The position numbers and the translations under genes are program-made. A stretch of 64,000 nucleotides of DNA from an uncultured bacterium (lineage in GTDB: Bacteria > Omnitrophota > Omnitrophia > Omnitrophales > Aquincolibacteriaceae): contig CAYZYT010000003.1 in the NCBI GenBank assembly GCA_964482725.1, positions 49,252 to 113,251 on the forward strand. Direction: 5' to 3'. Below are positions 4,114 to 51,669 of this stretch, piece by piece. The notes beneath the pieces were generated by a model. It was not told the origin of the DNA and did not search any database. It saw only the letters and a list, made by a program, of their open reading frames with translations. Within the stretch, counting starts at the first letter, position 1, and each line of letters starts with the position of its first letter.

Positions 4114-4989
4114 ATGAAAAATCCCTTCGAAGAACCCATCCATGATTTGCTCATCCGGGGACGCATTACGGAAGCGACCGCTGAAATTTTGATGCGTCAT
4201 TACGCCAAACAGCCCGATCACTTCAAGGAAGAAATGGCCGCGGCTCCGGAGGATGTGAATCTTGCGCATCTTATGAGGCTCATCGATCTTCTGGAAAAGA
4301 AGAATGAAATGCGGAAAGACGCTGATCCTCCGCAAAATCCAGTTTCTCCTGCTGAGAATTCTCCGGAGATCCCCAAGCCGGTATCTTGTGCGGGAGAGGT
4401 GGAAGCCTCTGGGACGACGGACACCCCGCGAGTGGAGCCTGAGCAGGCGGAGCTGGAGACCCGACTTGCAGAAGTGAAAAGGAAATGCGATGCGCTCGAG
4501 GTCGAACTTGCGGCTGAAAAAGAATTCCGGCGGGAATTTGAAAAGAGAGCTTTTGATTACGCGAAAAAATATGCTGATGCGGAAGAGGAGCGAAGACTCG
4601 CCCGGACCGCTGAGGAAAACAAGAGGAAAACGCTCGAAGAAGAGCATCGTCAGCTTCTTGAAGAGGTCCGCCGGATGCGTGAGGGAGAGAAGCCGGGTCT
4701 GGAGAAAGCTCAGGAGGGGCCTTCTTCGGATCTTGTGGCCCTGGGCCAAGAGAGGGAGCGTCTCGCCAAAGCCCTTGAGGGAAGCCATGAGGAAAAGGAT
4801 AAGGCTCTTGCGCGGATCAAAGAATTAGAAGAGAGCTCGGGGCGCATGGAAATGCTGAAGAATCGCTGTTCTGACCTTGAAGAAGAGTTGAAGAAAGAGA
4901 AGGAAATGCGCGCGAAGATCCAAACTCAGTTCCAAGGTCTTGAAAAAACCTTGCTGGATCTCGAGCGGCAAATAAACGCATTGTCTTAA
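4114..4989 (+). CDS. Coiled-coil protein, E/K/R-rich, function unknown
   Basis: Long heptad-like charged repeats (EVELAAEKEFRREFEKRAF..., LEEELKKEKEMRAKIQ) suggest a coiled coil. The start was chosen at MKNPFEE, although the ORF opens at 4066. Confidence 0.45.
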   Translation: MKNPFEEPIHDLLIRGRITEATAEILMRHYAKQPDHFKEEMAAAPEDVNLAHLMRLIDLLEKKNEMRKDADPPQNPVSPAENSPEIPKPVSCAGEVEASGTTDTPRVEPEQAELETRLAEVKRKCDALEVELAAEKEFRREFEKRAFDYAKKYADAEEERRLARTAEENKRKTLEEEHRQLLEEVRRMREGEKPGLEKAQEGPSSDLVALGQERERLAKALEGSHEEKDKALARIKELEESSGRMEMLKNRCSDLEEELKKEKEMRAKIQTQFQGLEKTLLDLERQINALS

Positions 4990-6904: not shown

Positions 6905-8386
6905 ATGCTCAAAACGAATAGATCCTGCGGCTCGTGGCTTCTTCTCTCGCTCTTATCGCCTCTTTTAATCTCTTTTGTCGGCTGCCGGACATTGGAAGTT
7001 CCCGCGAAATCGGACGATATGTGGGCGCCCCCACAGTGGTACGCCCAGTCTAAGAAACCTGAGACGGTCCTTACGGCAGTGCAAGGGAGGAAACCGAGCA
7101 TCGAACAACCCATGAGACTTGTGGAACTGGTCGGCCTTGCTTTGGAGAACAATCCCTCGACCAAGCAGGCATGGTACCAAGCTCTTTCAGCCAAAGCCAA
7201 AGTGGGGGAAGCTCAGAGTGCTTGGTATCCCACCGTGACCGTCGCGCAGAATTTTGACACCACGCATACGGTTTCCCATCGTCCCCTTCAAAGTCTGAAT
7301 CAAGGAGACATCGGCGCCAATATGAAACTGGCCTATATGCTGGTTGATTTTGGAGGCCGGAGCGCGAAGGTGGAACAGGCCTTTCAGACATTGCTCTCGA
7401 CCAATTTTCAATTCAATCAAACTTTCCAGAACCTCCTGCTGAACGTGTCTTCCGCTTACTTTAATTTTTTCAGCACGACGGCGTTACTTGAAGCTGCCCA
7501 TATGGACGTCAAGGATGCTAAGGCGGCGCTCGATGCGACTAGTGCGAAATTTTCTGCCGGGATCCAGGCGAAGGTGGACGTGCTTCAGGCTACCGCCAGT
7601 TATCAGAAGATGCTCTATGAATTGGAGTCCGCCAAGGGAAATCTTAAGACCGCGGAAGGAGATCTCGCGAGGGTGTTGGGTTTCCCGGCGGGGACTCCGC
7701 TCAACATCATGCTTCCTGAAAAAGATGTGGAATTTAAGGTGGGGACAAGGGAAGTGGGGCAATTGATCGAGGAAGGTTTGGCCAAGCGCCCCGATATTGC
7801 CGCGGAACGTGCCAGCCTGGCCGCCAAGATCGCCGCGATCAAGGCCGCTCGGTCGGATCTCTGGCCGACCTTGAACGCTCAAACGACGGGAGCAAACGAT
7901 TGGTACAAATATTTTGGCCGCCATGGTTTGGACTATGAAACGCAGCACACGTACGGTTATACGGCCGGCGTGAGCGTTGATTGGCCTATTTTTGAAGGGT
8001 TTGATACGGTTTCCAAGATCAAGGTCGCCCAAGCTGATGCGGATGCCGAGTTCGAGAATTTGCGTCAGAAAGAGCTGAGTGCCACGGCGGATGTTTGGGA
8101 TGCCTATTATAACTTTGTGACGGCGACCCAAAAGCTCGAGGCCAGCAAAGCCTACCTGGATGCTTCGCAAGGTTCGTACGATCTTTCCATGGACGGGTAC
8201 AAGTCAGGTCTGAAAAGCATCCTGGATGTTTTAAACGCGGAATCGGATCTTTCCGACGCCCGCAGCCAGGTGATCAAATCGCGGAAGGAACTTTACACCA
8301 GCTTTGCTCAGGTGGCCTATGCCACCGGTACGATCAACGAGAGAACGGATGCTGCCCGGGCCGAGCAGGGCACGGTCGAGCTCTAA
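6905..8386 (+). CDS. TolC-like outer membrane efflux protein (OMF)
   Basis: 493 aa with a lipoprotein-type signal (LLISFVGC). The two-repeat OEP architecture is typical (YQALSAKAKVGEAQSAWYPT..., second repeat SDLWPTLNA...). It sits first in an operon with an MFP and an RND pump. Confidence 0.75.
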   Translation: MLKTNRSCGSWLLLSLLSPLLISFVGCRTLEVPAKSDDMWAPPQWYAQSKKPETVLTAVQGRKPSIEQPMRLVELVGLALENNPSTKQAWYQALSAKAKVGEAQSAWYPTVTVAQNFDTTHTVSHRPLQSLNQGDIGANMKLAYMLVDFGGRSAKVEQAFQTLLSTNFQFNQTFQNLLLNVSSAYFNFFSTTALLEAAHMDVKDAKAALDATSAKFSAGIQAKVDVLQATASYQKMLYELESAKGNLKTAEGDLARVLGFPAGTPLNIMLPEKDVEFKVGTREVGQLIEEGLAKRPDIAAERASLAAKIAAIKAARSDLWPTLNAQTTGANDWYKYFGRHGLDYETQHTYGYTAGVSVDWPIFEGFDTVSKIKVAQADADAEFENLRQKELSATADVWDAYYNFVTATQKLEASKAYLDASQGSYDLSMDGYKSGLKSILDVLNAESDLSDARSQVIKSRKELYTSFAQVAYATGTINERTDAARAEQGTVEL

Positions 8387-16540: not shown

Positions 16541-16650
16541 ACCCTAAATCCTAAACAAATCCAAAACAAAAAACTTCAAACTCAAAAGCGTGGTTTTGGA
16601 TTTCGAGTTTTAGACATTTGAGTTTATTTAGGGTTTAGTGTTTTGTGTTT
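16541..16650. repeat. A/T-rich imperfect inverted repeat of the CTAAAYCCTAAA / AAATCCAAAAC family, between convergent genes
   Basis: The left arm is ccctaaatcctaaacaaatccaaaac and the right arm gttttggatttcgag...tttagggtttag. The words are shared with the elements at 29791-29890, 30250-30360 and 39731-39828. It probably also acts as a bidirectional terminator. Confidence 0.5.
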
Positions 16651-16687
16651 AAGGTTTTGCGTGGAAGTTTCTTCGCATTTCAAAAAA

Positions 16688-20696: not shown

Positions 20697-20789
20697 AACA
20701 GGACGACAGACCGGAGACTAGAGACTAGAGACTGGAGCTAAATCTCTTGTCTCGGGTCTTTAGTCTTCAGTCTGAAAAATGGAGCAATT

Positions 20790-21119
20790 ATGAAATATAA
20801 AATATTGGCAGTCATATTTGTGATGATGTTTATGGTTGTTGGCATAAGTTATGCTGCGGACGAACAGGCCTCGCTCGGGACTCAAGCGGGTGAAGCGGCA
20901 CGGGAGTTGAAGCGTACGGCAGGAGAGACCTTTTCGACGGGGGCTGTGAAGGTCGCGGATTCTTCCAAGAAAGTGGAAGCCGAGGCCCAGGAGACTTTAA
21001 AAACGCTTCAGCAGCAATGGGATGTGCTTGCGAAGCAGCTTCAGGAGAAAACCAAGCAGATCCAGACGCAGTGGCAACAACAGTGGCAGGATTTCAATAA
21101 GTCCTCAAATAAGCCATAG
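20790..21119 (+). CDS. Small secreted Q-rich protein of unknown function
   Basis: It has a signal peptide (MKYKILAVIFVMMFMVVGISYA) and a glutamine-rich C-terminus (QTQWQQQWQDF). Confidence 0.4.
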   Translation: MKYKILAVIFVMMFMVVGISYAADEQASLGTQAGEAARELKRTAGETFSTGAVKVADSSKKVEAEAQETLKTLQQQWDVLAKQLQEKTKQIQTQWQQQWQDFNKSSNKP

Positions 21120-23719: not shown

Positions 23720-23731
23720 CGAATCGGTTCT

Positions 23732-23862
23732 GTCATTCCCGCGCCACCGCCTGCAAAGCGGCGGGGTCCCGCCCGACGGCGGGAAAAGCGGGAATCCAGA
23801 TCGGGATAAACTTCAGAGGGGATTCAGAGATTGGATTCCCGATAAAAACATTCGGGAATGAC
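23732..23862. repeat. MITE-like nested palindrome element, copy E1 of the GTCATYC...GRATGAC family
   Basis: Its termini are GTCATTCCCGCG ... CGGGAATGAC, with internal hairpins (ccgcctgcaaagcggcgg, tcccgcccgacggcggga, cccgataaaaacattcggg). It is a longer relative of the copy at 51574-51637. Confidence 0.5.
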
Positions 23863-23929
23863 AAGCAGCACGTCAATTGAATTTTAAATCAACTTGGATG
23901 AGTCTTTAAAATAAAAAGGGAGAAACACA

Positions 23930-29790: not shown

Positions 29791-29890
29791 ACAAATCCTA
29801 AATCTGAAATCCAAGCTCTATGCATAAAATCCGAAATACGAATATCGAAATTCGAAATAATTCATTAATTTCAAAAATCCAAACAAGATA
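29791..29890. repeat. Left arm of the inverted repeat flanking the four-helix-bundle ORF (AAATCCTAAAT / AAATCCGAAATACGAATATCGAAATTCGAAA words)
   Basis: It matches the reverse complement of 30250-30360 (for example AATCCGAATATCGAAACTCGAAA) and shares words with the repeats at 16541-16650 and 39731-39828. Confidence 0.5.
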
Positions 29891-30249: not shown

Positions 30250-30360
30250 GTTTAAGCATTGGAAAATTCGAATTTGTTTCGAGTTTCGATATTCGGATTT
30301 AGGGTTTAGCGTTTAGAATTTAGGGTTTATTTTTGTTTCGATGTTCGGATTTTGATATTT
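30250..30360. repeat. Right arm of the inverted repeat flanking the four-helix-bundle ORF (TTTCGATATTCGGATTTAGGGTTTAG words)
   Basis: It is the reverse-complement partner of 29791-29890 and contains three TTTAGGGTTTA-like words. Confidence 0.5.
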
Positions 30361-31420: not shown

Positions 31421-31509
31421 CGTCATCCTGAGCACCGCGAAGGATCCCGCTTTGAGATTCTTCGGCCTGCTGCTTCTTGCTTCCGCAAGAAGCAGGTCTC
31501 AGAATGACG
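31421..31509. repeat. MITE-like nested palindrome element, copy E2 of the GTCATYC...GRATGAC family
   Basis: It reads cgtcatcctgagc ... gaaggatcccgctttgagattcttc ... ctgcttcttgcttccgcaagaagcag ... ctcagaatgacg, and is homologous along its length to 39829-39936. Confidence 0.55.
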
Positions 31510-32895: not shown

Positions 32896-33285
32896 GTGGC
32901 GGGGTGTTCCGTGGCTAAAAAAATTCTGCTGGTCGATGACAGCGCGTTGGTGTGCGCCATGATCAAGACGCAGTTGGAAGAGGCCGGTTATGAGGTCTTG
33001 ATCGCGAAAGATGGGCAGGAGGGTTTGGACCTCGCACGTAAGGAAGTGCCCGATTTTATCTTGCTGGATCTGATGCTTCCAAAACTCGATGGCTATAAAG
33101 TCTGCCGGATGCTCAAATTCGACAAAGTTTTCGAGCATATTCCCGTTATTATTTTTTCGGCTCGGGAGAGTGATGCGGATAAGAAACTCGCGGAGCAGTC
33201 CGGGGCCAACGCGTATATGGTCAAACCGTTCGATCCGGAGTTGTTCCATAAGACGATCCAGAAGTTGACCCGGAACTCAGCCTAG
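32896..33285 (+). CDS. Single-domain CheY-like response regulator (paralog 1 of 4)
   Basis: It has the acidic pocket LLVDDS, phosphoacceptor Asp in FILLDLMLP, and Lys in MVKPFD. It is closest to paralog 4. Confidence 0.85.
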   Translation: MAGCSVAKKILLVDDSALVCAMIKTQLEEAGYEVLIAKDGQEGLDLARKEVPDFILLDLMLPKLDGYKVCRMLKFDKVFEHIPVIIFSARESDADKKLAEQSGANAYMVKPFDPELFHKTIQKLTRNSA

Positions 33286-33313
33286 ATCATTCAGGGATGC
33301 GAGAGTTGCTTCT

Positions 33314-33724
33314 ATGAAAAAAAAGATTCTTTTGGTGGAAGATGAATCCCAGATACGGACGATCATTAGCGCGCGGTTGGCGGCCATGGGTTTTGAGGTG
33401 CTGATCGCGAAAGATGGTCTCGAGGGGCTGCATCTCGTTCGCAAGGAATCTCCGGACGTCGTTTTGTTGGATCTGATGCTCCCCGGAATGGACGGCTACA
33501 AACTATGCCGGATGATCAAATTCGATGTGGCTCTTGAACATATCCCGGTCGTCATTTGTTCGGCCAGGGCGAGTGATGAGGACAAGAAACGTGCAGAACA
33601 GTCCGGCGCTGACGCTTATCTGGTGAAGCCGTTCGAGATCAAATTGTTTGTGGAGACCATCCAGAAGCTGCTAGGGGTCTCACCTTCCAACCAACCTGAC
33701 GGGTTAGAAAAACCAGACTCGTGA
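33314..33724 (+). CDS. Single-domain CheY-like response regulator (paralog 2 of 4)
   Basis: It has the REC motifs LLVEDES, VVLLDLMLPGMDGYKLC and LVKPFE, plus a short C-terminal tail. Confidence 0.85.
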   Translation: MKKKILLVEDESQIRTIISARLAAMGFEVLIAKDGLEGLHLVRKESPDVVLLDLMLPGMDGYKLCRMIKFDVALEHIPVVICSARASDEDKKRAEQSGADAYLVKPFEIKLFVETIQKLLGVSPSNQPDGLEKPDS

Positions 33725-33764
33725 AAAGTTATTGGATAGAGTCAAGGGCGCGTGAGGGGCTTTT

Positions 33765-34133
33765 ATGAAAAAAAAGGTCCTTTTTGTGGAGGATGAATCC
33801 CAGATACGGGAGATCATTCTCGCGCGGTTGACCGCCATGGATTTTGAGGTGGTGGTCGCCAAAGACGGTCTCGAGGGTTTGCGGCTTGTTCGCACGAAAC
33901 GCCCCGACATGGTTTTACTGGACCTGATCCTTCCAAAACTGGACGGCTACAAGCTTTGCCGGATGATCAAGTTCGATACCACGCTTGAGCATATTCCGGT
34001 GATCATCTGCTCGGCCCTGGGAAGCGACGAGGACAAAAAACTCGCCGAACAAGCCGGCGCAGATGCGTACATGATCAAACCGTTCGATATGGATTTGTTT
34101 GTTTCCCTGGTCCAAAAGCTGACGGGTGTTTGA
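33765..34133 (+). CDS. Single-domain CheY-like response regulator (paralog 3 of 4)
   Basis: It has the REC motifs LFVEDES, MVLLDLILPKLDGYKLC and MIKPFD. It is closest to paralog 2. Confidence 0.85.
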   Translation: MKKKVLFVEDESQIREIILARLTAMDFEVVVAKDGLEGLRLVRTKRPDMVLLDLILPKLDGYKLCRMIKFDTTLEHIPVIICSALGSDEDKKLAEQAGADAYMIKPFDMDLFVSLVQKLTGV

Positions 34134-34213
34134 TCTTCAGGTTTGGATTTTGAGAACAGGCGTTTTTAGGGATTTTTATTTTGATAAAATGAAAGGTGAA
34201 TAGGGCGAATTTC

Positions 34214-34582
34214 ATGAAAAAAAGGATCCTTTTGGTGGATGATGAGCCCAATATTCTGACGATCGTGAGCGCGCGCCTGGTGGCCCTGGGTTTCGAAGTG
34301 CTGATCGCTCGAGACGGTCAGGAGGGCTTGGACCTTGCGCGCAAGGAATCTCCGGATGCGATCTTGTTGGATCTGATGCTTCCGAAGCTCGATGGTTATA
34401 AAGTCTGCCGGATGCTCAAATTCGACAAGGTTTATGGGCATATCCCGGTGATCATCTTTTCAGCCAAGGGGAGTGAGGAGTCTAAGAAGATGGCGGATCA
34501 GGCCGGTGCCGACGCGTATATGGTCAAGCCGTTCGATAACAAGTTGTTCGCGGAGACAATGAAGAGGCTGACAGGGGTTTGA
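34214..34582 (+). CDS. Single-domain CheY-like response regulator (paralog 4 of 4)
   Basis: It has the REC motifs LLVDDEP, AILLDLMLPKLDGYKVC and MVKPFD. An alternative GTG start lies at 34196. Confidence 0.85.
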   Translation: MKKRILLVDDEPNILTIVSARLVALGFEVLIARDGQEGLDLARKESPDAILLDLMLPKLDGYKVCRMLKFDKVYGHIPVIIFSAKGSEESKKMADQAGADAYMVKPFDNKLFAETMKRLTGV

Positions 34583-34599
34583 CCCTGATCGGAGAGACG

Positions 34600-36270
34600 A
34601 TGGTCCCAGACGTTAAATTATTAGAATTGTTGGTGAAGCAAGGGATGCTTCAGCAGGAGCAGGCGGATCAGGCCAAAAAAGAGGCGGGTCGCGTCGGCCA
34701 GTCTCTTGAATCCGTTCTTGTGAAGAGCGGTTTTATCACCGATGAAGAACTCGCCAGCACAAAAGCTACGATCCTCGGAGTGCCCTACATCGACATCAAT
34801 AATTATCGTCTCGACCGTGAACTGGTCAAGTTGATCCCCGAGAAGATCGCAAAGAAATACAGTCTTATCCCTCTTTTTTCGACCGGCGAAGCGCTTTCCA
34901 TCGGGATGATCGATCCTCAGAATATCGTGGCCATCGACCAGATCCGTAAACTCACCAACTTTGACGTGGTCGATCCCATCCTGGTCTCCTCAGGAGGTTT
35001 TCAGGCCGCGCTCAACACCTATTATCGTTCCTACGGTTCCATGGCGGATATCGTCAAGACCCTTGAAAAAGAGAAAACGCCCAGCATGGGCGAATCGCTT
35101 TTGGGCGAGATCACTGAGAAGACCCCTGTCAGCAAGCTCGTGGATTCTTTGCTGATGCAGGCCGTTCAATCTCGAGCCTCGGACATCCATATTGAACCTG
35201 AAGAAACGATCGTTTCGGTACGGCTTCGCGTGGACGGGCTTTTGCATCACATCACGACTTTTCCGCTTGTGATCCAAAACGCGGTCGTCTCGCGCGTGAA
35301 GATCCTGGGCGGCATGGATATCACCGAGAACCGGAAGCCCCAGGACGGCAAGATCCGCATGGAGCTCGAGGGGAAGGATCTGGATATCCGCGTTTCAACC
35401 TTCCCGACCCTTTTCGGCGAGAACGTGGTGCTGCGACTTTTGGACAAGCGTGCGATGCTTCCGAACCTTGTGGAATTAGGTTTTTCCAAAGAGAACCTCG
35501 ATAATTTTTCAAAACTGATCACGCGCTCGCATGGCATCATTCTGGTAACCGGCCCCACGGGAAGCGGGAAAACGACTACGCTTTACGCGGCGCTTTCCAA
35601 GATCAACAGCGAAGAGAAAAATATTGTGACGATCGAAGATCCCGTGGAATATGTGCTGCCCCGGGTTCGTCAGACCCAGGTCAATGTCAAAGCCGGCATC
35701 ACCTTTGCCAACGGGCTGCGAGGATTTTTGCGTCAAGATCCAGACATTATGATGGTCGGTGAGATCCGCGATAAGGAGACTGTGGAAATGGCGATCCAGT
35801 CGGCGCTGACCGGACATCTTGTGTTCTCAACCTTGCACACCAACGACGCCCCTTCCGCCTTGGCGCGCCTCATCGACATGGGGGCGGAACCGTTTCTGAT
35901 CTCTAGCTCGGTGATCGGGATCCTGGCGCAGAGGCTTGTTCGTGTGAATTGTCCCAAGTGTCGTGAGCCTTACACTCCCTCAGCTGCGGTGCTCCAAAGC
36001 GTCGGACTTCCGGAGGGAACCCAGGTGATGCGCGGGAAAGGCTGCACCAAATGCAACCAGAGCGGATTCACAGGTCGTATTGGGATCTTTGAGTTGATGT
36101 ACATTACCGATGAGATCAAATCCCTTGTGGATGCTCGTCGTTCGGCCGCGGATATCAAGAAGAAAGCCGTGGAGCAGGGGATGAAGACCTTGCGGCAGGA
36201 TGGTTTAGAAAAAGTCCTGAAAGGGATGACGCCTCTCGAAGAAGTCCTGAGAGTGACCGAGATCGAATAA
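34600..36270 (+). CDS. pilB: Type IV pilus assembly ATPase PilB/GspE family (MshE-like)
   Basis: It has an N-terminal T2SSE_N-like domain, Walker A GPTGSGKTTTLYA, Asp and His boxes, and a tetracysteine motif (CPKCREPY...CTKCNQSGF). The start was chosen at the ATG with a GGAGAG RBS, although the ORF opens at a TTG at 34579. Confidence 0.9.
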   Translation: MVPDVKLLELLVKQGMLQQEQADQAKKEAGRVGQSLESVLVKSGFITDEELASTKATILGVPYIDINNYRLDRELVKLIPEKIAKKYSLIPLFSTGEALSIGMIDPQNIVAIDQIRKLTNFDVVDPILVSSGGFQAALNTYYRSYGSMADIVKTLEKEKTPSMGESLLGEITEKTPVSKLVDSLLMQAVQSRASDIHIEPEETIVSVRLRVDGLLHHITTFPLVIQNAVVSRVKILGGMDITENRKPQDGKIRMELEGKDLDIRVSTFPTLFGENVVLRLLDKRAMLPNLVELGFSKENLDNFSKLITRSHGIILVTGPTGSGKTTTLYAALSKINSEEKNIVTIEDPVEYVLPRVRQTQVNVKAGITFANGLRGFLRQDPDIMMVGEIRDKETVEMAIQSALTGHLVFSTLHTNDAPSALARLIDMGAEPFLISSSVIGILAQRLVRVNCPKCREPYTPSAAVLQSVGLPEGTQVMRGKGCTKCNQSGFTGRIGIFELMYITDEIKSLVDARRSAADIKKKAVEQGMKTLRQDGLEKVLKGMTPLEEVLRVTEIE

Positions 36271-37487
36271 TGGAAGTCTCCTACCGCTATCAAGCCCGTG
36301 ATAAATTTGGACGGTCGGTGGCCGGACAGATGAGCGCCGTCTCCGATACGGAGGTCGCGACCAACCTTAAAACGAAGGGGCTGACTCCCTTTTCCATTGA
36401 GCCTATCGGGGAAAAGGCGTCCCGTGATTTTTTGGCGCCCTTTCGCCGCTTTAAACAAAGTGACGTCAATGCCTTTACGCGTGAGCTTTATACACTGACC
36501 CGGGCCGGATTGACCATCCTGGCATCTCTGGAGGTGATCGGGGAGCAAGACCGAAATCCCGTGCTCAAGAAGATCGTGGAAGGGCTCATCCAAAGTATCC
36601 GGGGCGGTGCGAGCATCTCCGATAGCTTGCAGCGTTATCCGAAGATCTTTAGCGTCCTTTACGTCAACATGATCCGGGCCGGTGAGGTTTCGGGTCGGCT
36701 GGAACAGATCCTGGAGCGCTTGATCTTCATTGGCGAGGCGGAAGAAAAACTTCAGATGCGCGTCAAGGCGGCGCTTCGTTATCCCGCCATTGTCTTTGGA
36801 GCTCTTGTGCTGGCGTTCCTATTTCTCACCAATTTTATCATCCCGCGTTTTGCCGTTCTTTTCACCCAAAGCGGTGTCGAGCTGCCGCTCCCGACCCGTC
36901 TCCTTTTAGGGATCCATGATGCTTTTACGAAGTATGGGTGGGTGACGGCGATCCTCGTGACCGCCCTGGTGATCTTTCTTATCCGATTTCTGAAGACTCC
37001 CACGGGGAAGCTTTGGCGTGATCGTCTCATGCTCAAGGTACCTGTTTTCGGGTCGTTAATTCTCAAATCTGAAATGTCGCGCTTTGCCCGCATCATGGCG
37101 CTTTTGATCCAGAGCGGGATCCCGGCACTTCGGGCTCTTGAGATCGCATCCGGAAGTTCTGATAATAAAGTGATCGTCGGAGCGATCGATAAGATTCGTG
37201 TGAGTGTTACGGAAGGGACCAGTATGACCGAGCCTATGAAGGCGAGCGGCATTTTTCCGCCTTCGGTGGTACGGATGGTCCATGTGGGGGAAGAGACCGG
37301 GAAAATTGATGAGTTGCTTTTAAAGGTCTCGGAATACTATGATATGCAGGTGGAATACACAGTTACCAATCTGATGGTTCTGATCGAACCGATGTTGATC
37401 GTGGTGCTCGGAGGGATGGTGTTTGTGCTGGCGCTCGGGATGTTCCTCCCGATGTGGAATATGATCAAGGTGTTTCAGCACGCATAG
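36270..37487 (+). CDS. pilC: Type IV pilus platform protein PilC/GspF family
   Basis: 405 aa with two GspF-type repeats and 3 TM helices. Its start overlaps the pilB stop (TAATG). Confidence 0.9.
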   Translation: MEVSYRYQARDKFGRSVAGQMSAVSDTEVATNLKTKGLTPFSIEPIGEKASRDFLAPFRRFKQSDVNAFTRELYTLTRAGLTILASLEVIGEQDRNPVLKKIVEGLIQSIRGGASISDSLQRYPKIFSVLYVNMIRAGEVSGRLEQILERLIFIGEAEEKLQMRVKAALRYPAIVFGALVLAFLFLTNFIIPRFAVLFTQSGVELPLPTRLLLGIHDAFTKYGWVTAILVTALVIFLIRFLKTPTGKLWRDRLMLKVPVFGSLILKSEMSRFARIMALLIQSGIPALRALEIASGSSDNKVIVGAIDKIRVSVTEGTSMTEPMKASGIFPPSVVRMVHVGEETGKIDELLLKVSEYYDMQVEYTVTNLMVLIEPMLIVVLGGMVFVLALGMFLPMWNMIKVFQHA

Positions 37488-37506
37488 GGTTCATGCCCTA
37501 TAGTGT

Positions 37507-37590
37507 TGGCACTGCTCAGGATTGGCTTATACGGGACCTAATGCAGGTGTTTACACCTATAATGCTACGAGCGGGACTTTCCAGTAATAA
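37507..37590 (+). pseudogene. Pilin gene 3' remnant (last ~25 codons plus the double stop TAATAA) with no start codon
   Basis: It translates in frame as ...LAYTGPNAGVYTYNATSGTFQ**, matching the C-termini of the two intact pilins at 37660-38034 and 38141-38515. An in-frame stop lies at 37501 and no start codon is present. Confidence 0.5.
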
Positions 37591-37659
37591 TTTTTCGATC
37601 GACTTAAGTAAAGTGTCCGGGAATGAATGATGTATAAAAATAACAAAAGGAGAAGTCCA

Positions 37660-38034
37660 ATGTTCAAACGCGAAAAAGGTTTTACGCTCATTGAATTGAT
37701 CATGGTGATCGTGCTGTTAGGTCTTTTGGCGGTTGTGGCGATCCCGCAATACACCAATCTCCAGACCCAGGCCAAGACGGCTGCCGAACAAGGGGTGGTC
37801 GGAGGTGTTCGTTCGGGCATCTACACCAAATATGCCGCCAATCTGGCGCAAAATGTCACTCCGGCCTACCCGGCAACACTAGGCGGAACTGGAAGTTGCA
37901 CAACGGGCAGTCCCTGTTTTGGCAATGTTCTTTCACAGGGGATCACGCAGGATTGGTCAGCCAGTGGTGCGACTTTCACGGGTCCCAATGGTGGTACTTA
38001 CACCTACAACGCTACGACCGGGACTTTCCAATAA
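37660..38034 (+). CDS. pilA: Type IVa major pilin (prepilin with N-terminal methylation motif)
   Basis: It has a 7-aa leader MFKREKG followed by FTLIELIMVIVLLGLLAVVAIPQY. An AAAAGGAGAA RBS precedes the ATG at 37660. Confidence 0.85.
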   Translation: MFKREKGFTLIELIMVIVLLGLLAVVAIPQYTNLQTQAKTAAEQGVVGGVRSGIYTKYAANLAQNVTPAYPATLGGTGSCTTGSPCFGNVLSQGITQDWSASGATFTGPNGGTYTYNATTGTFQ

Positions 38035-38140
38035 TAATCTTTGTGGCGGAGTGATGTGGGGTGTTTCTGCATTAATTGAGGCATAGGGCTGCAAAACGAA
38101 GCAGACCTGTTCCCGACAAATCAACAAAAGGAGAATGTAA

Positions 38141-38515
38141 ATGTTTAAACGTGCAAAAGGTTTTACGCTCATTGAATTGATCATGGTGATCGTGCTGTTA
38201 GGTCTTTTGGCGATCGTGGCGATCCCGCAATACACCAATCTCCAGACTCAGGCCAAGACGGCCGCAGAACAAGGGGTGGTCGGAGGCGTTCGTTCGGGGA
38301 TCTACACCAAGTATGCCGCCAACTTAGCGCAAAATGTCACGCCTGCTTTTCCGGCCACGTTGGATGCCAATGCGAACGGTGCTTGTGTGACCTGCTTTAC
38401 CAACGTTCTCTCTCAACCGATCAACGACACGACCTGGACTAAGTCCGGATCGGCTTATACAGGGCCTAATTCCGGCGTTTACTCCTACAACGCTACGACC
38501 GGGACTTTCCAGTAA
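38141..38515 (+). CDS. pilA: Type IVa major pilin, tandem paralog
   Basis: The leader MFKRAKG is followed by FTLIEL. Its N-terminal 75 aa are near-identical to the first pilin, the C-terminal variable region diverges, and the last ~20 aa are conserved. Confidence 0.85.
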   Translation: MFKRAKGFTLIELIMVIVLLGLLAIVAIPQYTNLQTQAKTAAEQGVVGGVRSGIYTKYAANLAQNVTPAFPATLDANANGACVTCFTNVLSQPINDTTWTKSGSAYTGPNSGVYSYNATTGTFQ

Positions 38516-38544
38516 TAAGATTTGTGCCCGATCACAGTTGTGGA

Positions 38545-38580
38545 AAAGCGGGCGTCCTCAAAGGACGCCCGCTTTTCGTT
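38545..38580 (+). terminator. Rho-independent terminator after the second pilin gene
   Basis: The sequence aaaaGCGGGCGTCCtcaaaGGACGCCCGCttttcg forms a 10-bp GC-rich stem followed by Ts. Confidence 0.8.
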
Positions 38581-38596
38581 ATCGAAAGGGTGATTC

Positions 38597-39730
38597 GTGA
38601 ATAAGAAGGGTTCGGCCCTGATGACGGTGCTTATCGTCGTCATCCTTATTCCCATTATTGTTTTTGCCACCACCAGTTTCATTACGTCTTCCTTGCTCCG
38701 CTACACCACGCAAAACAGGAACATCAAGGCCCTCTACCTTGCCCAGGCGGGGATCCATCGGGCCATTTACAAGATCAGGAACGGTGCGCCCGGCGCGCCT
38801 CTGACGGATTTTACCGACCATATCCCCCCAGGCTCGGACGACACAGCCCTTGTGCAACAGACGGGAATAAGTGGTAATGTCTATCAGGTCAAATCGACAG
38901 GAACCTCGGTTGCGGTAAATTATCCGACGCTGATCTCCCGAATGGTTTCTGTGCAATACAATGACAACACGAACAAAATCAGCCTTTGTGCTGAGGGGGA
39001 TGGCACCGGCTTTCCGCCTCTGTGTAGTGCGATTTGGTGGCCGTTTAGCGAGGGATCGGGATATACGACAGGGACCTCGCCCTATGGGGGCACTCTGACG
39101 CCTTCGACTGCAAACGGGCCGGCATGGACTACCGATCGTTATGGGGCCGCGGGGAAAGCGCTCAATTTTAATCAAGCCGCCACCACCAATTATGTGGTCG
39201 TTCCTGATTCTGCGGGGCTTGATCTCACCACCTCTGGAACACTCATGGCATGGATCCGTCCCTCTGCGATACCCAACCAAGCCCAACAGACCATTGTGCA
39301 TAAAGGGGGAGCTACGACAGCCACGAATGCTTATGCCCTTTTTCTTCGTCGACAGAGCACTAATCTAGCCAGAGTCCGATTTTGGATTTACAGTGGCACT
39401 GGGAATGGCACCCAATATTTGGCAAGTGGTGGTACGAATATGGGCCTTAACACTTGGTACCATATCGCCGGAGTTTGGGACTCAACCGGTTTGCGTGTCT
39501 ACCGCAATGGAGTGCCCGACGGTACTCTCGTGAGCGCCAATCGGGTGGCGAGGACTAATGCCAATTCCTTGTACATAGGTGCGAGTGGGACTTTGGCAGC
39601 AGCCCAAGAGTTTGCCGGGAAAATCGATGAAGTGTACATCTATGGTTGCCGAAAAACCGATGCGGAAATTAAGACTTATTACAATGCCACCTGCGCCGGA
39701 AGCGGCGCGACTCCTTGTCCGCAGCCTTGA
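38597..39730 (+). CDS. Minor pilin (PilX/GspK-like N-terminus lacking Glu5) with a C-terminal LamG/concanavalin-A-like jelly-roll domain
   Basis: A GTG start has a GAAAGGG RBS upstream. The N-terminus KKGSALMTVLIVVILIPIIVF is pseudopilin-like without E5. The C-terminal region (TLMAWIRP...WYHIAGVWDSTGLRVYRNGVPDG...SLYIGA...GKIDEVYIY) has a LamG-like pattern. Confidence 0.55.
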   Translation: MNKKGSALMTVLIVVILIPIIVFATTSFITSSLLRYTTQNRNIKALYLAQAGIHRAIYKIRNGAPGAPLTDFTDHIPPGSDDTALVQQTGISGNVYQVKSTGTSVAVNYPTLISRMVSVQYNDNTNKISLCAEGDGTGFPPLCSAIWWPFSEGSGYTTGTSPYGGTLTPSTANGPAWTTDRYGAAGKALNFNQAATTNYVVVPDSAGLDLTTSGTLMAWIRPSAIPNQAQQTIVHKGGATTATNAYALFLRRQSTNLARVRFWIYSGTGNGTQYLASGGTNMGLNTWYHIAGVWDSTGLRVYRNGVPDGTLVSANRVARTNANSLYIGASGTLAAAQEFAGKIDEVYIYGCRKTDAEIKTYYNATCAGSGATPCPQP

Positions 39731-39828
39731 TCCGGGGAATGAATGATAAACTCTAAACTCGAAATCCGAGACTCTAAACAAATTCAAATTTATGAAAACT
39801 CTAAACACTAGAGCGTCTCTCAATAGCG
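39731..39828. repeat. A/T-rich CTCTAAAC / CGAAATCCGAG repeat copy, same family as 16541-16650 and 29791-30360
   Basis: It contains ctctaaactcgaaatccgagactctaaacaaa...aaactctaaacacta. Confidence 0.4.
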
Positions 39829-40304
39829 TCGTCATCCTGAGCTTGCCCCGTTTTACGGGGCGGGCGAAGGATCTCACTTTGAGATTCTTCGGACTGCTGC
39901 CTTCTGCGAAGGCAAGAAGCAGGTCTCAGAATGACGCCTTTCTGCGAAAAGGTGTCACGCTGATAGAACTGATCATGGCCATGGTCATATTGGTCGCGAT
40001 CTCCATCCCGACGGCTTCTATGATCGGAGCGCAGATCCAGGGTATGGCCGAGTCTTCAGACCTTACGGCGGCCGGGAATGCGGCGCGAGCGCAGATGGAA
40101 AAACTCGAGAATACCGCCTATGGAAATGTCACGGCAAACAGCACCACCGTTTCTCCTTACGAGCTGAGCTGGGGCGTCGCGGAGACCGTGAATGGCACCG
40201 AAGCGATGAAAAATATTACGATGAGCATTCAGAGGACCGGGACGTCATCGGTTCTGTTGACGCTTTACAACACGTTCTGTAAGGGTGTGAGCGACGGCGA
40301 ATGA
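39792..40304 (+). CDS. Pseudopilin (type IV prepilin-like) whose 5' end is uncertain or disrupted by inserted repeats
   Basis: The mature-pilin-like segment G-VTLIELIMAMVILVAISIP starts at about 39951. The only in-frame ATG upstream is at 39792, and the 53 aa before the Gly are a read-through of the two repeat elements. No canonical start exists within 20 codons of the Gly. Confidence 0.45.
   Translation: MKTLNTRASLNSVVILSLPRFTGRAKDLTLRFFGLLPSAKARSRSQNDAFLRKGVTLIELIMAMVILVAISIPTASMIGAQIQGMAESSDLTAAGNAARAQMEKLENTAYGNVTANSTTVSPYELSWGVAETVNGTEAMKNITMSIQRTGTSSVLLTLYNTFCKGVSDGE
39829..39936. repeat. MITE-like nested palindrome element, copy E3 of the GTCATYC...GRATGAC family
   Basis: It reads cgtcatcctgagc ... 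ccccgttttacgggg ... gaaggatctcactttgagattcttc ... ctgccttctgcgaaggcaagaagcag ... ctcagaatgacg. Confidence 0.55.
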
Positions 40305-40383
40305 AAAATATCCGCGGGTTTACCCCGTTAGAGACTGGTCAAAGATCACTTCAGCTACGTTTTCCTGGTGAGGGGCAATAAGC

Positions 40384-40998
40384 ATGAACGCCTGGGTAGG
40401 GCAGGACTCGCGGAAGCGCTCAAAGAAGCGCTTCCTGTCTCTAACGGGGTTTACCCTTATTGAGCTTGTGATGGTAATTCTTATCGCGAGCGCTCTTTCC
40501 ATGGGCGGGTACTACATCATGCAGTTTATGGTCCAGAATACCTTCTACTTGCCGAACCAGGTCCAGACAGATCTCGCGGCCGCGCAGGCCTTGGAGACTT
40601 TGGTCGAAGGGGATACGGCGACCGTTCACGGATTACGTTTCTCAAGGACCGTAACGGCTCTTGCGCCCAACGACGTGACGGTGAAGGACCAGGATTGCGG
40701 AGATTTGAGGTTCTGGCTGGATACGGCGAATCACCAGCTCAAACGGCAGATTGGAGGGGGGGCCGAGACTGTGGTGCCGTATTTTATGCCTCCGAGTGTG
40801 TCTTTTACCGGATCCGGTGTCGGAGATGCTTTTTTCACTTATTACGATGGGTTGGAGGTAGAGACGAATGACCCTACCAAGGTGCGCCGCATCCAGATCA
40901 ATTTAATTGCTCAACAAGGAGCGGGTTCGGTCGATAGTTTTCAAGGGATCAGTCGTCAGAACACGTCCGTTAAAGTGAGTAAATATACATGCGTGTAA
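40384..40998 (+). CDS. Pseudopilin (prepilin-type N-terminal cleavage/methylation domain protein)
   Basis: The leader ...RFLSLTG is followed by FTLIELVMVILIASALSMGGYYIM. The mature part is about 180 aa. Confidence 0.6.
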   Translation: MNAWVGQDSRKRSKKRFLSLTGFTLIELVMVILIASALSMGGYYIMQFMVQNTFYLPNQVQTDLAAAQALETLVEGDTATVHGLRFSRTVTALAPNDVTVKDQDCGDLRFWLDTANHQLKRQIGGGAETVVPYFMPPSVSFTGSGVGDAFFTYYDGLEVETNDPTKVRRIQINLIAQQGAGSVDSFQGISRQNTSVKVSKYTCV

Positions 40999-41094
40999 AC
41001 CCGGAAGCTACCGTGTTTAGTTTATTCTTCCGGGTTAACGGTACGGTTCGGATCCATTAATTAAACACAACGGGTCATCATCGCCAGGAGTCTC

Positions 41095-42672
41095 ATGTCT
41101 TTTCTTTCTATAGAATTAGGGAAGCATCAGTTCAAGGTGCTTTTACTTGAAAGAGAGAAGGATGTTTTGGTGATCCGGCAAGATCTCGCTCTCATCATTC
41201 CTCCCGAGTTCATCAAATCCAAGATCCCCGAAGCGCTTAAGGATTTTATGCGGCGCTACGATGTTACGGATCACAAGATTTTTTTGACCCTTTCGGACCC
41301 GAGCGTGATCACCCTTAAGAATGCTGTGTTCCCCCTGATGGCGACAGGCGAACTTGTGGCGGCGATCGCATGGCACGCCAAAGAAGAGGGGGTCTTGACG
41401 GAGGATGTGATCTTTTTTAGTTATGAGATCGTCAAGGAGTTCGAGGACTCCGAAGGCGCGAAGAAGGTCGCGGTGACGTATTCAACCGTGAACCGGAAGC
41501 TTCTCGAAGAGTCGATCCGGATGCTGAAGCGGATGGGCCTCGAGGTCCTCCATGTGAGTGCTGCGCCGCTCAACACCCCGAAGGTTTTGCCGGCTGCGGC
41601 AGACAAGTCTCAATCTCAGATGGTGCTGCATCTGGGGTATTCCTCTTCGACTTGTGTGATCTATAAAAATGGAAAACTGGTTTTTATGAGAACCTTGTCG
41701 TTCTCTTACGAGAAAACCCGGTTGAGTCTGAACGACCCGCTCTTTTTGGGGGCGAAGTTCAGAACCCCGGCAGCCGAGGCGGAGATCGAGAAGGCGATCC
41801 AGACGATCGGGATCCCTCACGAAGAATTCTCGGTCGGGAGCGGGGAGAACCAGGCCACGCAGTTTTTTGGTCTCATGCGACCGGTCTTGGAAGGTCTTGT
41901 CCGTGAGATCCGTTATTCCCTGACTTATTTTATGCAAAACTTAAGTGAAGAAAAGCCTTCGGCTTTGTTCCTGACGGGACATGGCACGAGATTCAAGGGC
42001 CTGGATCTTTATCTTAACAGAGAGTTGGAAATGCCCGTTTCAAACCTGAGGCTGCCTTCGTCAGCCCGGTGCGACCAGGCCGCTGTCCTTGAAGACCCGA
42101 TTCGGCTCAGTCAGTGTGTGAGTGCGGTGGCAGGACTTCTTCCGGGTGAGAAGAGCGCGGATTTCATGCCTTTTGAGATTAAAAGCCAGAAGTTCGAAAC
42201 TTTCCAGAGAAGTGTCTTGAAAATGGTTACGCTTGTTGCGGCGGGGCTCTGTGTGAGCTCATTCATTTTAGCGAATCTTCACGGGGTTTTTTTAAAGGAG
42301 CGTTTCGGGCTTGGAGAAAAAGAGCTTGCGAACTTCGGGAAATTCGCTCAGGCTTCAGCCCAGGCGTTCCCGAAGTATTATTTGACGCGCGAGTTGGAAA
42401 AAGCGACGATCCCTGCCGACAAAGTTTTGCGTCTCTTGGGGCATTTGATGCCCGGGGGGTTGGCGATGCGCCATTTTGAAGTCGATTCTTCAAGCCGTTC
42501 CATGGTGGCAGATCTTGAGACGTCCGGGTTGGATGAGGGGGGGAATCCGATGGTCGAGGACCTCCTCAGGAGGCTCCGGGAAACGGGATTTTTTAAAAGG
42601 GTCGATGCGAAGCCCGTGAACGGATATTCGGTGTCCGTTTACAGGCTCGAAGGAGTTTTCCGAAATGATTAA
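41095..42672 (+). CDS. pilM: PilM-like actin-fold ATPase with a fused C-terminal PilN-like bitopic domain
   Basis: The N-terminal ~350 aa are PilM/FtsA-like (a CAGGAG RBS precedes the start). A TM helix (VTLVAAGLCVSSFILANL) and a periplasmic domain of about 130 aa follow. Confidence 0.65.
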   Translation: MSFLSIELGKHQFKVLLLEREKDVLVIRQDLALIIPPEFIKSKIPEALKDFMRRYDVTDHKIFLTLSDPSVITLKNAVFPLMATGELVAAIAWHAKEEGVLTEDVIFFSYEIVKEFEDSEGAKKVAVTYSTVNRKLLEESIRMLKRMGLEVLHVSAAPLNTPKVLPAAADKSQSQMVLHLGYSSSTCVIYKNGKLVFMRTLSFSYEKTRLSLNDPLFLGAKFRTPAAEAEIEKAIQTIGIPHEEFSVGSGENQATQFFGLMRPVLEGLVREIRYSLTYFMQNLSEEKPSALFLTGHGTRFKGLDLYLNRELEMPVSNLRLPSSARCDQAAVLEDPIRLSQCVSAVAGLLPGEKSADFMPFEIKSQKFETFQRSVLKMVTLVAAGLCVSSFILANLHGVFLKERFGLGEKELANFGKFAQASAQAFPKYYLTRELEKATIPADKVLRLLGHLMPGGLAMRHFEVDSSSRSMVADLETSGLDEGGNPMVEDLLRRLRETGFFKRVDAKPVNGYSVSVYRLEGVFRND

Positions 42673-43734: not shown

Positions 43735-43818
43735 TACGTCATGGGATCAATTCGTCCTGGATTTGTAGGACAGGTTTCAATCTGCCCTACCTCAGTAGGT
43801 GAATTCACGGGAGGCATC

Positions 43819-47686: not shown

Positions 47687-47765
47687 CGTCATTTTGATCC
47701 TGAGCGTGGTGGGAGAGCCTCTCCGCTGGGATCCTTCGCGGGGCTCAGGATGACGAGGGTTTCGT
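47687..47765. repeat. MITE-like nested palindrome element, copy E4 of the GTCATYC...GRATGAC family
   Basis: It reads cgtcattttgatcctgagcg ... ggatccttcgcggggctcaggatgacg. Confidence 0.5.
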
Positions 47766-50093: not shown

Positions 50094-51578
50094 GTTCACT
50101 TTCGGATCTTTCCAACAGTCTCGGGGCAATCCGGCTTTCTGGGAACAAAGCTCGCTCAAGAACTCCTCCTTGCTCCATCCCGTTTCAGTGGCGACTTGTG
50201 GCAGAAAAACCCCGTGATGAAAATCTTTAGAAATTTGAACGCCGTGTTTCCCTAGCTCGATCTCTTGGGCCGTCTCCACTCTTCTGAGCGGGCTCAGGAC
50301 CGAGATCTCGTATTCCAGTTTCCCTAGTTCGTCCGCCGTGACAGGCCTGAAGCGCGGATCCTGAGAAGCGGCGGAAATGGCCATTTGCTGGATGATCTTG
50401 AAAAGAGGCTCCGAGGGCTCGAAGCGGCCGATACACCCGCGAAGCTGGCCATTTTCTTTCAGGGTTACAAATGCACCGAGCCGTGCTGTCAGCGCCGGGG
50501 ATGATGGAGAAAATTCCTGGGTTTTTCCAGTTTGGACGTAACTTTCCACGGTGGCGCGCGCGATCTTCAGAAGTTCTGCCTGGTCCTGCGCGGTCATCCC
50601 TTTTTCATCTGCCCTGGGTGAAAGCGGCTTTGTGCCGGGTTTTGAGGGAAAAGCGACCGCGCCGTAACCGACGACGCGGTTTTTGTCTCCTGCCGGAGAG
50701 TCCCCCGAGTTAGCATATTTTAAAAGAACCGGAGCGGGATCCCCGGCGGCTTTTGCCAGCAGCAGAGCCGTCCGGACTCCGCTGGGGCTACAAAGAAAAG
50801 TTTCGGCTTGCGGGATGCGTTCGGAAGCCAGGGTGTTCAGGATCGCGTTCAGATTCTCCGTTTTTCCGGTCAGGATGGCCTCTAGGACTTTCTTGTCCCC
50901 TTCAGAGGCTTCAGTGTAGGCCGGATAGTGCGACATGTCCGTGCTTGCGACGAGTACTGTTTTTTCATCCATAAGCGACGGGAGGATCGCCGCGAGTTTT
51001 TCTGCGAGTTCCGGGGAATCGCCGCTAAAAAGGATAGGCACGATCTTGAAATCTTTCAGGACGCGTTGGAGGAACGGAAGTTGTACCTCGAGCACGTGAT
51101 CGCCTTCGTAGATGTCCGGACGGTCGACGATGGCGGGGTCTGCGGCAAGGAGTTTTGAAGTGATCGCTTCATCCACGGGGACAAGACCGAGAGGCGTTTC
51201 AAAGGCGCCTCGGGCGTAGATCGCGATGCCGTCGAAAGAATGACGGTGGCTGTTCCCGATCAGGATGACCGTACGGATGTCCCGGTCTTGGAGCACTTTA
51301 TAGGCGTATGCGGCGACCGGTCCCGAATAAACATAACCAGCATGCGGGACCATGATCGCGCGGATCGGTTCCTTGATCTTGGGTGGATCGGCCTGGCGAA
51401 GGAGGGCATCCACGTATGGCTCAAGGGTTGCTTTGTCTCCCGGATAAAATCCTCCGGCCACAGCGGCTTTCCGGATGTTGTTTCCTGGGGCCTCTTTTTT
51501 TTCTCCGGACAAGCTGAACGTAAAGGCTAGGGAAAGAATAGCGAATAGGAGAACATGGACGCTTTTCTTTTTTGTCAT
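50043..51578 (-). CDS. AmmeMemoRadiSam system fused protein: Memo-like (protein B) N-terminal domain plus AMMECR1 (protein A) C-terminal domain, with an N-terminal hydrophobic leader
   Basis: The Memo motifs are AGGFYPGD and MVPHAGYVYSG, and the AMMECR1 motif is LRGCIGRFEP. The start was chosen at MTKKKSVHVLLFAILSLAFTF; the ORF extends further upstream only by reading through repeat E5. It is adjacent to the partner radical SAM gene. Confidence 0.75.
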   Translation of the reverse strand: MTKKKSVHVLLFAILSLAFTFSLSGEKKEAPGNNIRKAAVAGGFYPGDKATLEPYVDALLRQADPPKIKEPIRAIMVPHAGYVYSGPVAAYAYKVLQDRDIRTVILIGNSHRHSFDGIAIYARGAFETPLGLVPVDEAITSKLLAADPAIVDRPDIYEGDHVLEVQLPFLQRVLKDFKIVPILFSGDSPELAEKLAAILPSLMDEKTVLVASTDMSHYPAYTEASEGDKKVLEAILTGKTENLNAILNTLASERIPQAETFLCSPSGVRTALLLAKAAGDPAPVLLKYANSGDSPAGDKNRVVGYGAVAFPSKPGTKPLSPRADEKGMTAQDQAELLKIARATVESYVQTGKTQEFSPSSPALTARLGAFVTLKENGQLRGCIGRFEPSEPLFKIIQQMAISAASQDPRFRPVTADELGKLEYEISVLSPLRRVETAQEIELGKHGVQISKDFHHGVFLPQVATETGWSKEEFLSELCSQKAGLPRDCWKDPKVNLQVFTADVFSEKEKRH

Positions 51579-51637
51579 TCCCGCGAAAGCGGGAATCCAG
51601 GCGTATGGATCCCCGATAGAAGCCTTCGGGGATGACA
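51574..51637. repeat. MITE-like palindrome element, copy E5 of the GTCATYC...GRATGAC family
   Basis: It reads gtcattcccgcgaaagcgggaatccagg ... gatccccgatagaagccttcggggatgacag. The Memo-fusion ATG (minus strand, 51576-51578) lies inside its first arm. Confidence 0.5.
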
Positions 51638-51669
51638 GCAAGGATTTATTAAGATTTGAAATTTTAGAT

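Follow-up and report, generated by a model that had tools for sequence, protein, structure and literature searches.

Five tagged hairpin dimers in an Omnitrophota contig

The window analysed here, a stretch of 64,000 nt from a contig of an uncultured bacterium of the Omnitrophota, carries among its chemotaxis, pilus and other genes five short structured elements, which are the subject of this study (Table 1). A preliminary description had taken them for a single family of nested-palindrome elements, starting with GTCAT(T/C)C and ending with GRATGAC, that would behave like miniature inverted-repeat transposable elements (MITEs) or like RNA elements resembling repetitive extragenic palindromic (REP) sequences. 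Direct extraction, together with a search for hairpins downstream of GTCAT, refined the limits of the five elements and showed that each is composed of two short tagged hairpin units in inverted orientation with their tags pointing outwards, i.e. a head-to-head dimer. All five lie in spacers between co-directional genes, in line with the intergenic placement described earlier.

Each unit opens with an unpaired CGTC or TGTC tag, followed by a stem with A-T and T-A as its first two pairs, then by a loop, the returning strand of the stem and a short tail. The tag is CGTC in six of the ten units and TGTC in four, and never GTAG. Nine of the ten units are complete, with a stem that starts with AT, a return arm and a CCA or CYC tail. 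Two unit types belonging to one superfamily can be distinguished. Type 1 units, which form elements 1 and 5, have a perfect 8-bp stem (ATTCCCGC/GCGGGAAT or ATYCCCGA/TCGGGRAT) and the tail CCA in all four cases. Type 2 units, which form elements 2, 3 and 4, have a nine-position stem with the arms ATCCTGAGC/GCGAAGGAT or ATTCTGAGA/CCGAAGAAT, in which a conserved tandem G.A/A.G mismatch comes after five Watson-Crick pairs and before one or two further pairs; their tail is CCC or CTC, and units 2b and 3b contain one extra A.C mismatch. In the heterodimeric type 2 elements of the window, a CCT unit is paired with a TCT unit, the names referring to the triplet that follows the initial AT. Loops are 4 nt long in unit 5a only and 3, 9, 21, 33 or 45 nt in the other units; according to the folding predictions, the long loops carry additional GC-rich hairpins (23744-23788, 39844-39864 and 31468-31495) that extend the helix of the unit.

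These results support much of the preliminary description and correct it in part. The GRATGAC end is present in all five elements, while the GTCAT(T/C)C start is found in four and is missing from the 47687 copy, which begins with CGTCATTT as part of a broken left unit. The elements are related, as had been claimed, but as two unit types within one superfamily rather than as a uniform family. The 31421 and 39830 copies are indeed collinear (85% identity over 78 nt), and the 23731 and 51573 copies share the arms that had been pointed out. That the segments are structured beyond chance is borne out by the number of strict units, in which GTC is followed by an 8-bp stem free of mismatches; of these, the window contains six, compared with a mean of 0.11 and a maximum of two in 200 shuffles; GTCATYC itself occurs 34 times, compared with 19.9 expected. 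Single-strand folding, which had been suggested as a check, gave z-scores of -4.6 to -7.6 for four elements and of -2.1 for the degenerate 47688 copy.

Arm-level searches that allowed mismatches revealed no further convincing copies in the window. One 31-nt segment within an AAA_22 ATPase gene, possibly a degenerate intragenic type 1 unit, was set aside on account of its poor stem and its position inside that gene, and may be a relic or a product of chance.

Table 1. Positions of the elements, their hairpin units and other repeats in the window
Feature	Position	Strand	Description
Element 1	23731-23863		Spacer between cheW and the methyl-accepting chemotaxis protein (MCP) gene
Unit 1a, type 1	23731..23799	+	TGTC tag, stem ATTCCCGC/GCGGGAAT, 45-nt loop with two nested GC-rich hairpins, tail CCAG
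Unit 1b, type 1	23829..23863	-	TGTC tag, stem ATTCCCGA/TCGGGAAT, 9-nt loop, tail CCA; opposes unit 1a, tags outward
Element 2	31421-31509		Spacer between cheB and the hybrid histidine kinase gene
Unit 2a, type 2 (CCT)	31421..31450	+	CGTC tag, arms ATCCTGAGC/GCGAAGGAT, tandem G.A/A.G mismatch, 3-nt loop, tail CCC
Unit 2b, type 2 (TCT)	31451..31509	-	CGTC tag, arms ATTCTGAGA/CCGAAGAAT, loop with nested hairpin CCTGCTTCTTGC/GCAAGAAGCAGG, tail CTCA
Element 3	39830-39936		Spacer between the LamG-domain gene and the prepilin-like gene
Unit 3a, type 2 (CCT)	39830..39877	+	21-nt loop with nested hairpin GCCCCG/CGGGGC
Unit 3b, type 2 (TCT)	39878..39936	-	Collinear with unit 2b
Element 4	47687-47755		Spacer between mscS and the spermidine-synthase-like gene
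Unit 4a, broken	47687..47706	+	CGTC tag, ATTTTG (CGTCATTTTG), left arm ATCCTGAGC; lacks its own right arm
Unit 4b, type 2 (CCT)	47725..47755	-	CGTC ATCCTGAGC CCC GCGAAGGAT CCCA
Element 5	51573-51637		Spacer between the radical SAM gene and the Memo/AMMECR1 gene
Unit 5a, type 1	51573..51600	+	TGTCATTCCCGCGAAAGCGGGAATCCAG; 27/28 to the Neisseria NTS consensus; only window match to the SRM pattern (see text)
Unit 5b, type 1	51603..51637	-	TGTC ATCCCCGA, 9-nt loop, TCGGGGAT CCA
Possible degenerate type 1 unit (set aside)	45964-45994	-	GGTC ATTCCCGAA ... TCCGGAAAT CCA
AT-rich spacer repeat	16626-16671, 20718-20790, 29800-29880, 30264-30340, 39742-39800, 51640-51670		Periodic; unrelated to the elements

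Filled, empty and exchanged sites in related genomes

Among the homologues of the CheB protein of the window, those at 55-64% identity are assigned to Candidatus Omnitrophota, and closer ones are metagenome proteins. Contigs of related Omnitrophota (L001-L008 and the P0013 contig) were fetched via CheB proteins that are 75-96% identical. At each of the five positions, related contigs show either an empty site or a different unit type, which agrees with the earlier view of dense, ORF-less, REP-like elements of nested palindromes that are dispersed in the genome. The spacer between cheB and the kinase gene measures 164 nt in the window compared with 9-19 nt in L004, L006/L007, L008 and the P0013 contig; L002, a 96% relative, has element 2 at the same place and 96.6% identical, equal to the flanking genes, and L003 has a different type 2 dimer there, whose left unit shows a compensated stem (ATGCT.../...AGCAT). 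L003 and L004 lack an element between cheW and the MCP gene, and L004 and L008 have a shorter mscS spacer that carries none. The spacer between the radical SAM and Memo genes measures 40 nt in L004 and is non-existent in L008, where the genes overlap. Between the LamG and pilin genes, L006 has an empty spacer of 14 nt and L003 a type 1 dimer, as opposed to the type 2 dimer of the window. Conversely, type 1 dimers are found in relatives at sites that are empty in the window (L003 16498-16632; L004 7631-7696 and 18179-18256). Where the window has element 1, L006 carries a single unit of another CGTC type (2404-2432, corresponding to L007 5642-5670; TGTC ATCCGCCGG CTTGA CCGGAGGAT CC) with a 9-bp stem, one mismatch and a 5-nt loop.

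Near-identical copies also occur in related contigs at other positions. A copy at a non-orthologous site in L003 has 88% identity to element 1, compared with only 77.5% for the cheB DNA of the two genomes; the arms of both copies are identical, both have the same unusual structured loop of 45-49 nt, and beyond the tag they have the six bases CGGTTC in common. When five short type 1 dimers, taken from the window, L003, L004 and L161 (a contig described below), are aligned, their tags, arms and tails prove invariant, and their loops and spacers vary. Unit density amounts to ten per 64 kb in the window and to between zero and six per 17-21 kb in the relatives. Taken together, this shows a dispersed repeat that is turning over while its stem sequence is constrained. 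L001, a Logan contig, breaks off within the long loop of element 1 (window position approximately 23771), and L005 starts within the 7631-7696 dimer of L004, which shows that short-read assemblies break inside these elements.

Distribution of the units and covariation of their arms

The type 2 unit was searched for with an exact pattern in one genome per species, which gave at least 119 stretches, of which 80 titles were listed. Among the matches listed, at least 15 phyla are represented: many matches belong to Acidobacteriota, and the other hosts comprise Omnitrophota (L013, L023 and L024), Patescibacteria, Chloroflexota, Verrucomicrobiota, Planctomycetota, Bacteroidota, Chlorobiales, Bacillota, Fibrobacter, Gemmatimonadota, several classes of Pseudomonadota, Bdellovibrionales, Dormiibacterota, Binataceae and Eggerthellaceae. 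The type 1 heterodimer pattern likewise has many matches in metagenomes, those listed being a lower bound, and both unit types are present in IMG/VR contigs. Direct arrays of type 2 units at regular spacing occur in a viral contig (L299 8595-8969, five copies approximately 87 nt apart) and in a Thermoanaerobaculia contig (L050 1563-1890, three copies 148 nt apart).

Covariation was counted in 'bystander' units with a left arm GTCAT-NNN-GAG, for which a right arm GA-N'N'N'-AT was looked for at most 70 nt away; the CCT triplet was left out of the count because the loci had been fetched by CCT and are biased in this respect. Of the 267 non-CCT left arms, 96 are followed by their own complementary right arm, compared with about one per non-cognate triplet. 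For individual triplets, the cognate right arm was found in 58 of 64 cases for TCT, 9 of 11 for TCC and 9 of 10 for GCT. Thus, the GAG...GA core is fixed while the triplet covaries between the arms, and it follows that the hairpin of the unit, and not the dimer alone, is the conserved structure. The resulting 'GA-type' layout, GTC-AT-NNN-GAG ... GA-N'N'N'-AT, combines an invariant G.A/A.G core with a covarying 3-bp triplet (CCT, TCT, CCC, GCT, TCC, TTC and others) and an upper stem of variable length.

Small Ssn-like GIY-YIG genes next to the units in other genomes

In Neisseria, hairpins of this kind have a known protein partner. The 28-nt NTS consensus CGTCATTCCCGCGMAVGCGGGAATCYRG, which includes the dRS3 repeat, is bound and cut by SsnA, a single-domain GIY-YIG protein of 94 aa that acts on NTS as single-stranded DNA only, cuts adjacent to it and is without activity on RNA (Chenal et al. 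2025, PMC11893778). In N. meningitidis, the SsnA/NTS pair lowers transformation by NTS-containing DNA, and the ssn genes of many bacteria are flanked by such hairpins, termed Ssn-related motifs (SRMs) (PMC11893778). Unit 5a deviates from the NTS consensus at only one of the 28 positions (27/28).

A hidden Markov model built from generic small GIY-YIG sequences and iterated on the fetched loci identified nine Ssn-like GIY-YIG open reading frames (ORFs; PF01541) of approximately 95 aa in 3.77 Mb of these loci. Eight of the nine adjoin tagged units of the type used for fetching, and several are flanked on both sides. Five adjoin type 2 units (L010, L029, L046, L061 and L081) and three adjoin type 1/NTS units (L360, L395 and L448), so that repeat-gene-repeat layouts resembling those of NTS/SRM and ssn genes are found for both unit types in other genomes. 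In their adjacency to Ssn-like genes, type 2 units thus behave like SRMs, even though the published pattern misses them. The ninth ORF, in L161, has a third unit type (GTGTCATTGCGAGG ... CGAAGCAATC) on both flanks (7480-7560 and 7850-7945); one of the flanks holds tandem partial copies of it, and a type 1 dimer is located approximately 350 nt off.

The nine proteins form one family with a mutual identity of 34-75%, in which the type 1-associated members cluster together. At least 7984 homologues of about 95 aa are present in the protein collection; many phyla are named among the 120 best homologues of the L161 protein, and Omnitrophota is not. NCBIfam was found to hold no model for the Ssn-like proteins, and sequence searches of the PDB with them gave weak matches only, to UPF0213 and UvrC GIY-YIG proteins.

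Gene context and start codons

According to the preliminary description, the element termini would supply a potential ATG at each right end. This applies in one case, in which GTCAT of unit 5a provides, on the minus strand, an ATG (51578-51576) in frame with the Memo/AMMECR1 gene; a start at this codon would yield MTKKKSVHVLLFAILSLAFTFS..., with a normal-looking predicted signal peptide. Use of an alternative upstream start (ATG at 51701; MEKKS, kept in L008) would read the whole of element 5 in frame. The ATGs of elements 1 and 2 are unused, as the downstream genes begin 67 and 47 nt further on. Element 3 lies wholly in frame within the mechanical ORF 39792-40304 of the prepilin-like gene, where no ATG, GTG or TTG separates the element from the G|VTLIEL cleavage motif (39931-39966), and its tag ATG at 39931 is off by one frame relative to this gene; one added A in the run 39947-39950 would give MTPFCEKG|VTLIEL, comparable with MPKKTERG|VTLIEL of L006.

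Some copies of a second, AT-rich spacer repeat (TTTAGGGTTTAG, CTCTAAAC, GAGACTAGAGACT and AAATTCGAAAT) are mutually inverted; its translation, a peptide of the 'ISNLKFQI' type, is found in the window, L004 and L008 where the Memo/AMMECR1 ORF has its 5' end. The pilus/type II secretion-like cluster (approximately 32900-46700) is a variable island that is present in L003 and L006 and absent from L004, L008 and the P0013 contig, in which mscS directly follows the histidine kinase gene; it comprises four tandem response-regulator paralogues, T2SSE, T2SSF, LamG, PilM, a secretin, the AAA_22 gene and three tandem pilin paralogues (37516-38523). In L003 only, a gene for a 23S rRNA intervening-sequence protein (PF05635) lies between two cheW genes (4534-4893). 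No tRNA or tmRNA gene was found in the window.

Discussion

The tagged hairpins described here have a counterpart in the CGTC REPs (families CGTC-1 to CGTC-4) defined by Di Nocera, De Gregorio and Rocco (2013, PMC3733652). These carry a CGTC tag, often replaced by TGTC and with CCTC as a further permitted variant, have 8-9 bp stems that nearly always start with complementary A/T residues, loops of 4-5 nt that deviate in some families, and CCA-fitting tails. They mostly form head-to-head dimers, whose 20-100 bp spacers may hold small stem-loops, and lie between unidirectional or convergent genes, with some intragenic copies; no transposase is linked to them, including tyrosine transposase genes (PMC3733652). 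The units of the window agree with this definition in the tag (ten of ten), the AT-starting stem of 8-9 bp, the short unpaired tail (CCA in type 1 and CCC or CTC in type 2 units), the tag-outward dimers between co-directional genes (five of five) with occasional intragenic copies, and the lack of a linked transposase among the ORFs scanned. Type 1 units correspond to CGTC-1: their translation WIPAFAGMT resembles the peptides SFPRKRES, VIPAKAGI and DSRFRGND of intragenic CGTC-1 copies. Type 2 units are set apart by the conserved tandem G.A/A.G mismatch inside the stem and by their translation (VILS..AKD), which is absent from the table of intragenic copies in that paper, the comparison being with its text and this table. 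Of the CGTC repeats, CGTC-1 of Neisseria is the dRS3 repeat, and the Rickettsia palindromic elements RPE-4 and RPE-6 were placed in CGTC-4 and CGTC-1, respectively (PMC3733652). RPE-4 and RPE-6 can lie in frame within coding regions, as elements 3 and 5 may do, but differ from the elements of the window in sequence family and host. The CGTC REP and NTS/SRM literatures can be joined because both equate their repeat with dRS3, although the more recent study (PMC11893778) does not cite the earlier one (PMC3733652). The elements are thus new members of a known repeat class, in a phylum that is not among the five listed for CGTC REPs (PMC3733652).

We propose that the five segments are head-to-head dimers of CGTC/TGTC-tagged REP units of the dRS3/NTS class that would be recognised by an Ssn-type nuclease, a reading that we consider probable as a whole. 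It draws on direct observations, namely the anatomy of the tag-outward dimers and their two unit types, the spread among related Omnitrophota, the covariation of the arms within units and the adjacency of Ssn-like genes in other genomes. Several points weigh against it. Most loops of the window units (3, 9, 21 or 33-45 nt) fall outside the 4-5 nt of CGTC REPs, and the published SRM pattern matches one unit of ten, namely 5a. In contrast to the ssn genes flanked by SRMs elsewhere, no GIY-YIG gene was detected in the window or in the approximately 113 kb of L001-L008 with the hidden Markov model, at lax thresholds either. Insertion rather than deletion at the orthologous spacers is argued from parsimony only, because the diverged spacers hide the junctions in the alignments. 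Furthermore, the literature gives no mechanism for the multiplication of such repeats, and a role at the RNA level is an alternative, albeit an unlikely one.

This alternative holds that the elements are primarily RNA elements, operon-internal stem-loops that stabilise, terminate or attenuate transcripts, and that their behaviour as DNA repeats is secondary. It would fit the position of all five between co-directional genes, where they would be transcribed, their strong predicted structures and the TTTTTT run that directly follows element 2, the only element with such a run, which lies past the whole dimer. On the other hand, scans for terminators gave no hit around elements 1 and 2, the whole window gave no match to Rfam at gathering thresholds, and close relatives have the same operons with element-free spacers of 9-19 nt. 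Moreover, the stem sequence itself, beyond its pairing, is invariant across unrelated sites and phyla, which points to recognition by a sequence-specific protein, and SsnA is inactive on RNA (PMC11893778). Chance palindromes or an assembly or vector artefact, for which nothing speaks beyond the general abundance of short palindromes, are refuted by the six strict units observed compared with 0.11 in shuffles, by the recurrence of units in hundreds of public contigs and by the independent assemblies (L001 and L002) that have the element in identical placement; it is this last finding that disposes of the artefact which the preliminary description had named as a possible refutation.

The MITE reading, in which the elements derive by deletion from insertion sequences, end in terminal inverted repeats and depend for their movement on a DDE or TnpA/TnpB-type transposase acting in trans, accounts for the inverted ends (GTCATYC ... 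GRATGAC), for the variable presence of copies among relatives and for the CGGTTC outside the tag that element 1 and the non-orthologous L003 copy have in common. We nevertheless regard it as very improbable: no target-site duplication or other direct repeat flanks any of the five window elements, and the apparent terminal inverted repeats are two inverted tagged hairpin units, the repeated entity being a single tagged hairpin that occurs in different pairings (CCT with TCT; ATTCCCGC with ATCCCCGA) and whose own arms covary. The 30 window ORFs scanned against Pfam contain no transposase domain and no parent insertion sequence with the same ends, and no transposase turned up in the related loci that were checked; elsewhere, the only gene seen next to the units is the GIY-YIG nuclease. 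Still less credit is due to maintenance of the elements as GTAG-type REPs or REP doublets (REPINs) by a RAYT, i.e. an IS200-like Y1 transposase. REPINs share with the elements the organisation as inverted pairs of tagged hairpins that are dispersed in spacers, here between co-directional genes, and for which two folds are possible, namely two separate hairpins or a single long imperfect one. However, the tag is CGTC or TGTC and never GTAG, CGTC repeats were reported to lack any association with tyrosine transposase genes (PMC3733652), and the Y1 transposase domain is absent from the window ORFs scanned. The candidate partner is a GIY-YIG protein rather than a RAYT of the HUH/Y1 type, with which no association was seen. 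The same evidence, the tag and the adjoining Ssn-type gene of about 95 aa, speaks against the IS200/IS605 TnpB-type partner that had been suggested previously.

Based on the Ssn-type reading and by analogy with the biochemistry of Neisseria SsnA, we propose the following hypothetical scenario, in which (i) the units would form hairpins in single-stranded DNA, as it arises during replication, repair and the entry of transforming or conjugating DNA; (ii) a cognate GIY-YIG nuclease of the Ssn type, whose gene would lie outside the window, would bind these units and may cut next to the tag; (iii) the pairing of protein and repeat, present or past, would account for the multiplication of the units; (iv) elements in operon spacers would be passively co-transcribed as stable stem-loops and would occasionally become the 5' end of a gene, as may be the case for element 5, whose tag supplies an in-frame ATG.

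More tentatively, and with less confidence than we place in the class assignment, we suggest that the type 2 or GA-type units might represent a major, undescribed branch of Ssn-recognised hairpins that is paired with a distinct set of GIY-YIG nucleases of approximately 95 aa. If the triplet sets specificity, the result would be a naturally occurring set of single-strand DNA nucleases whose recognition code can be read. Judged against the text and the table of intragenic copies in the earlier survey, the unit type with the GA mismatch, together with its association with Ssn-like genes, may be the only part of our findings that goes beyond the literature.

In summary, our study documents a GA-mismatch unit type that occurs in many phyla and adjoins Ssn-like genes, and connects, via dRS3, the literature on CGTC REPs (2013) with that on NTS/SRM and Ssn (2025). 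Since the SRM pattern finds one of the ten window units, surveys based on this pattern will undercount such repeats. For genome annotation, it is relevant that these elements break short-read assemblies, enter called ORFs and can supply start codons. The significance is mainly one of annotation: structured spacer 'junk' in Omnitrophota operons joins a repeat class described in Proteobacteria, Bacteroidetes and others, which has a biochemically defined partner enzyme in Neisseria.

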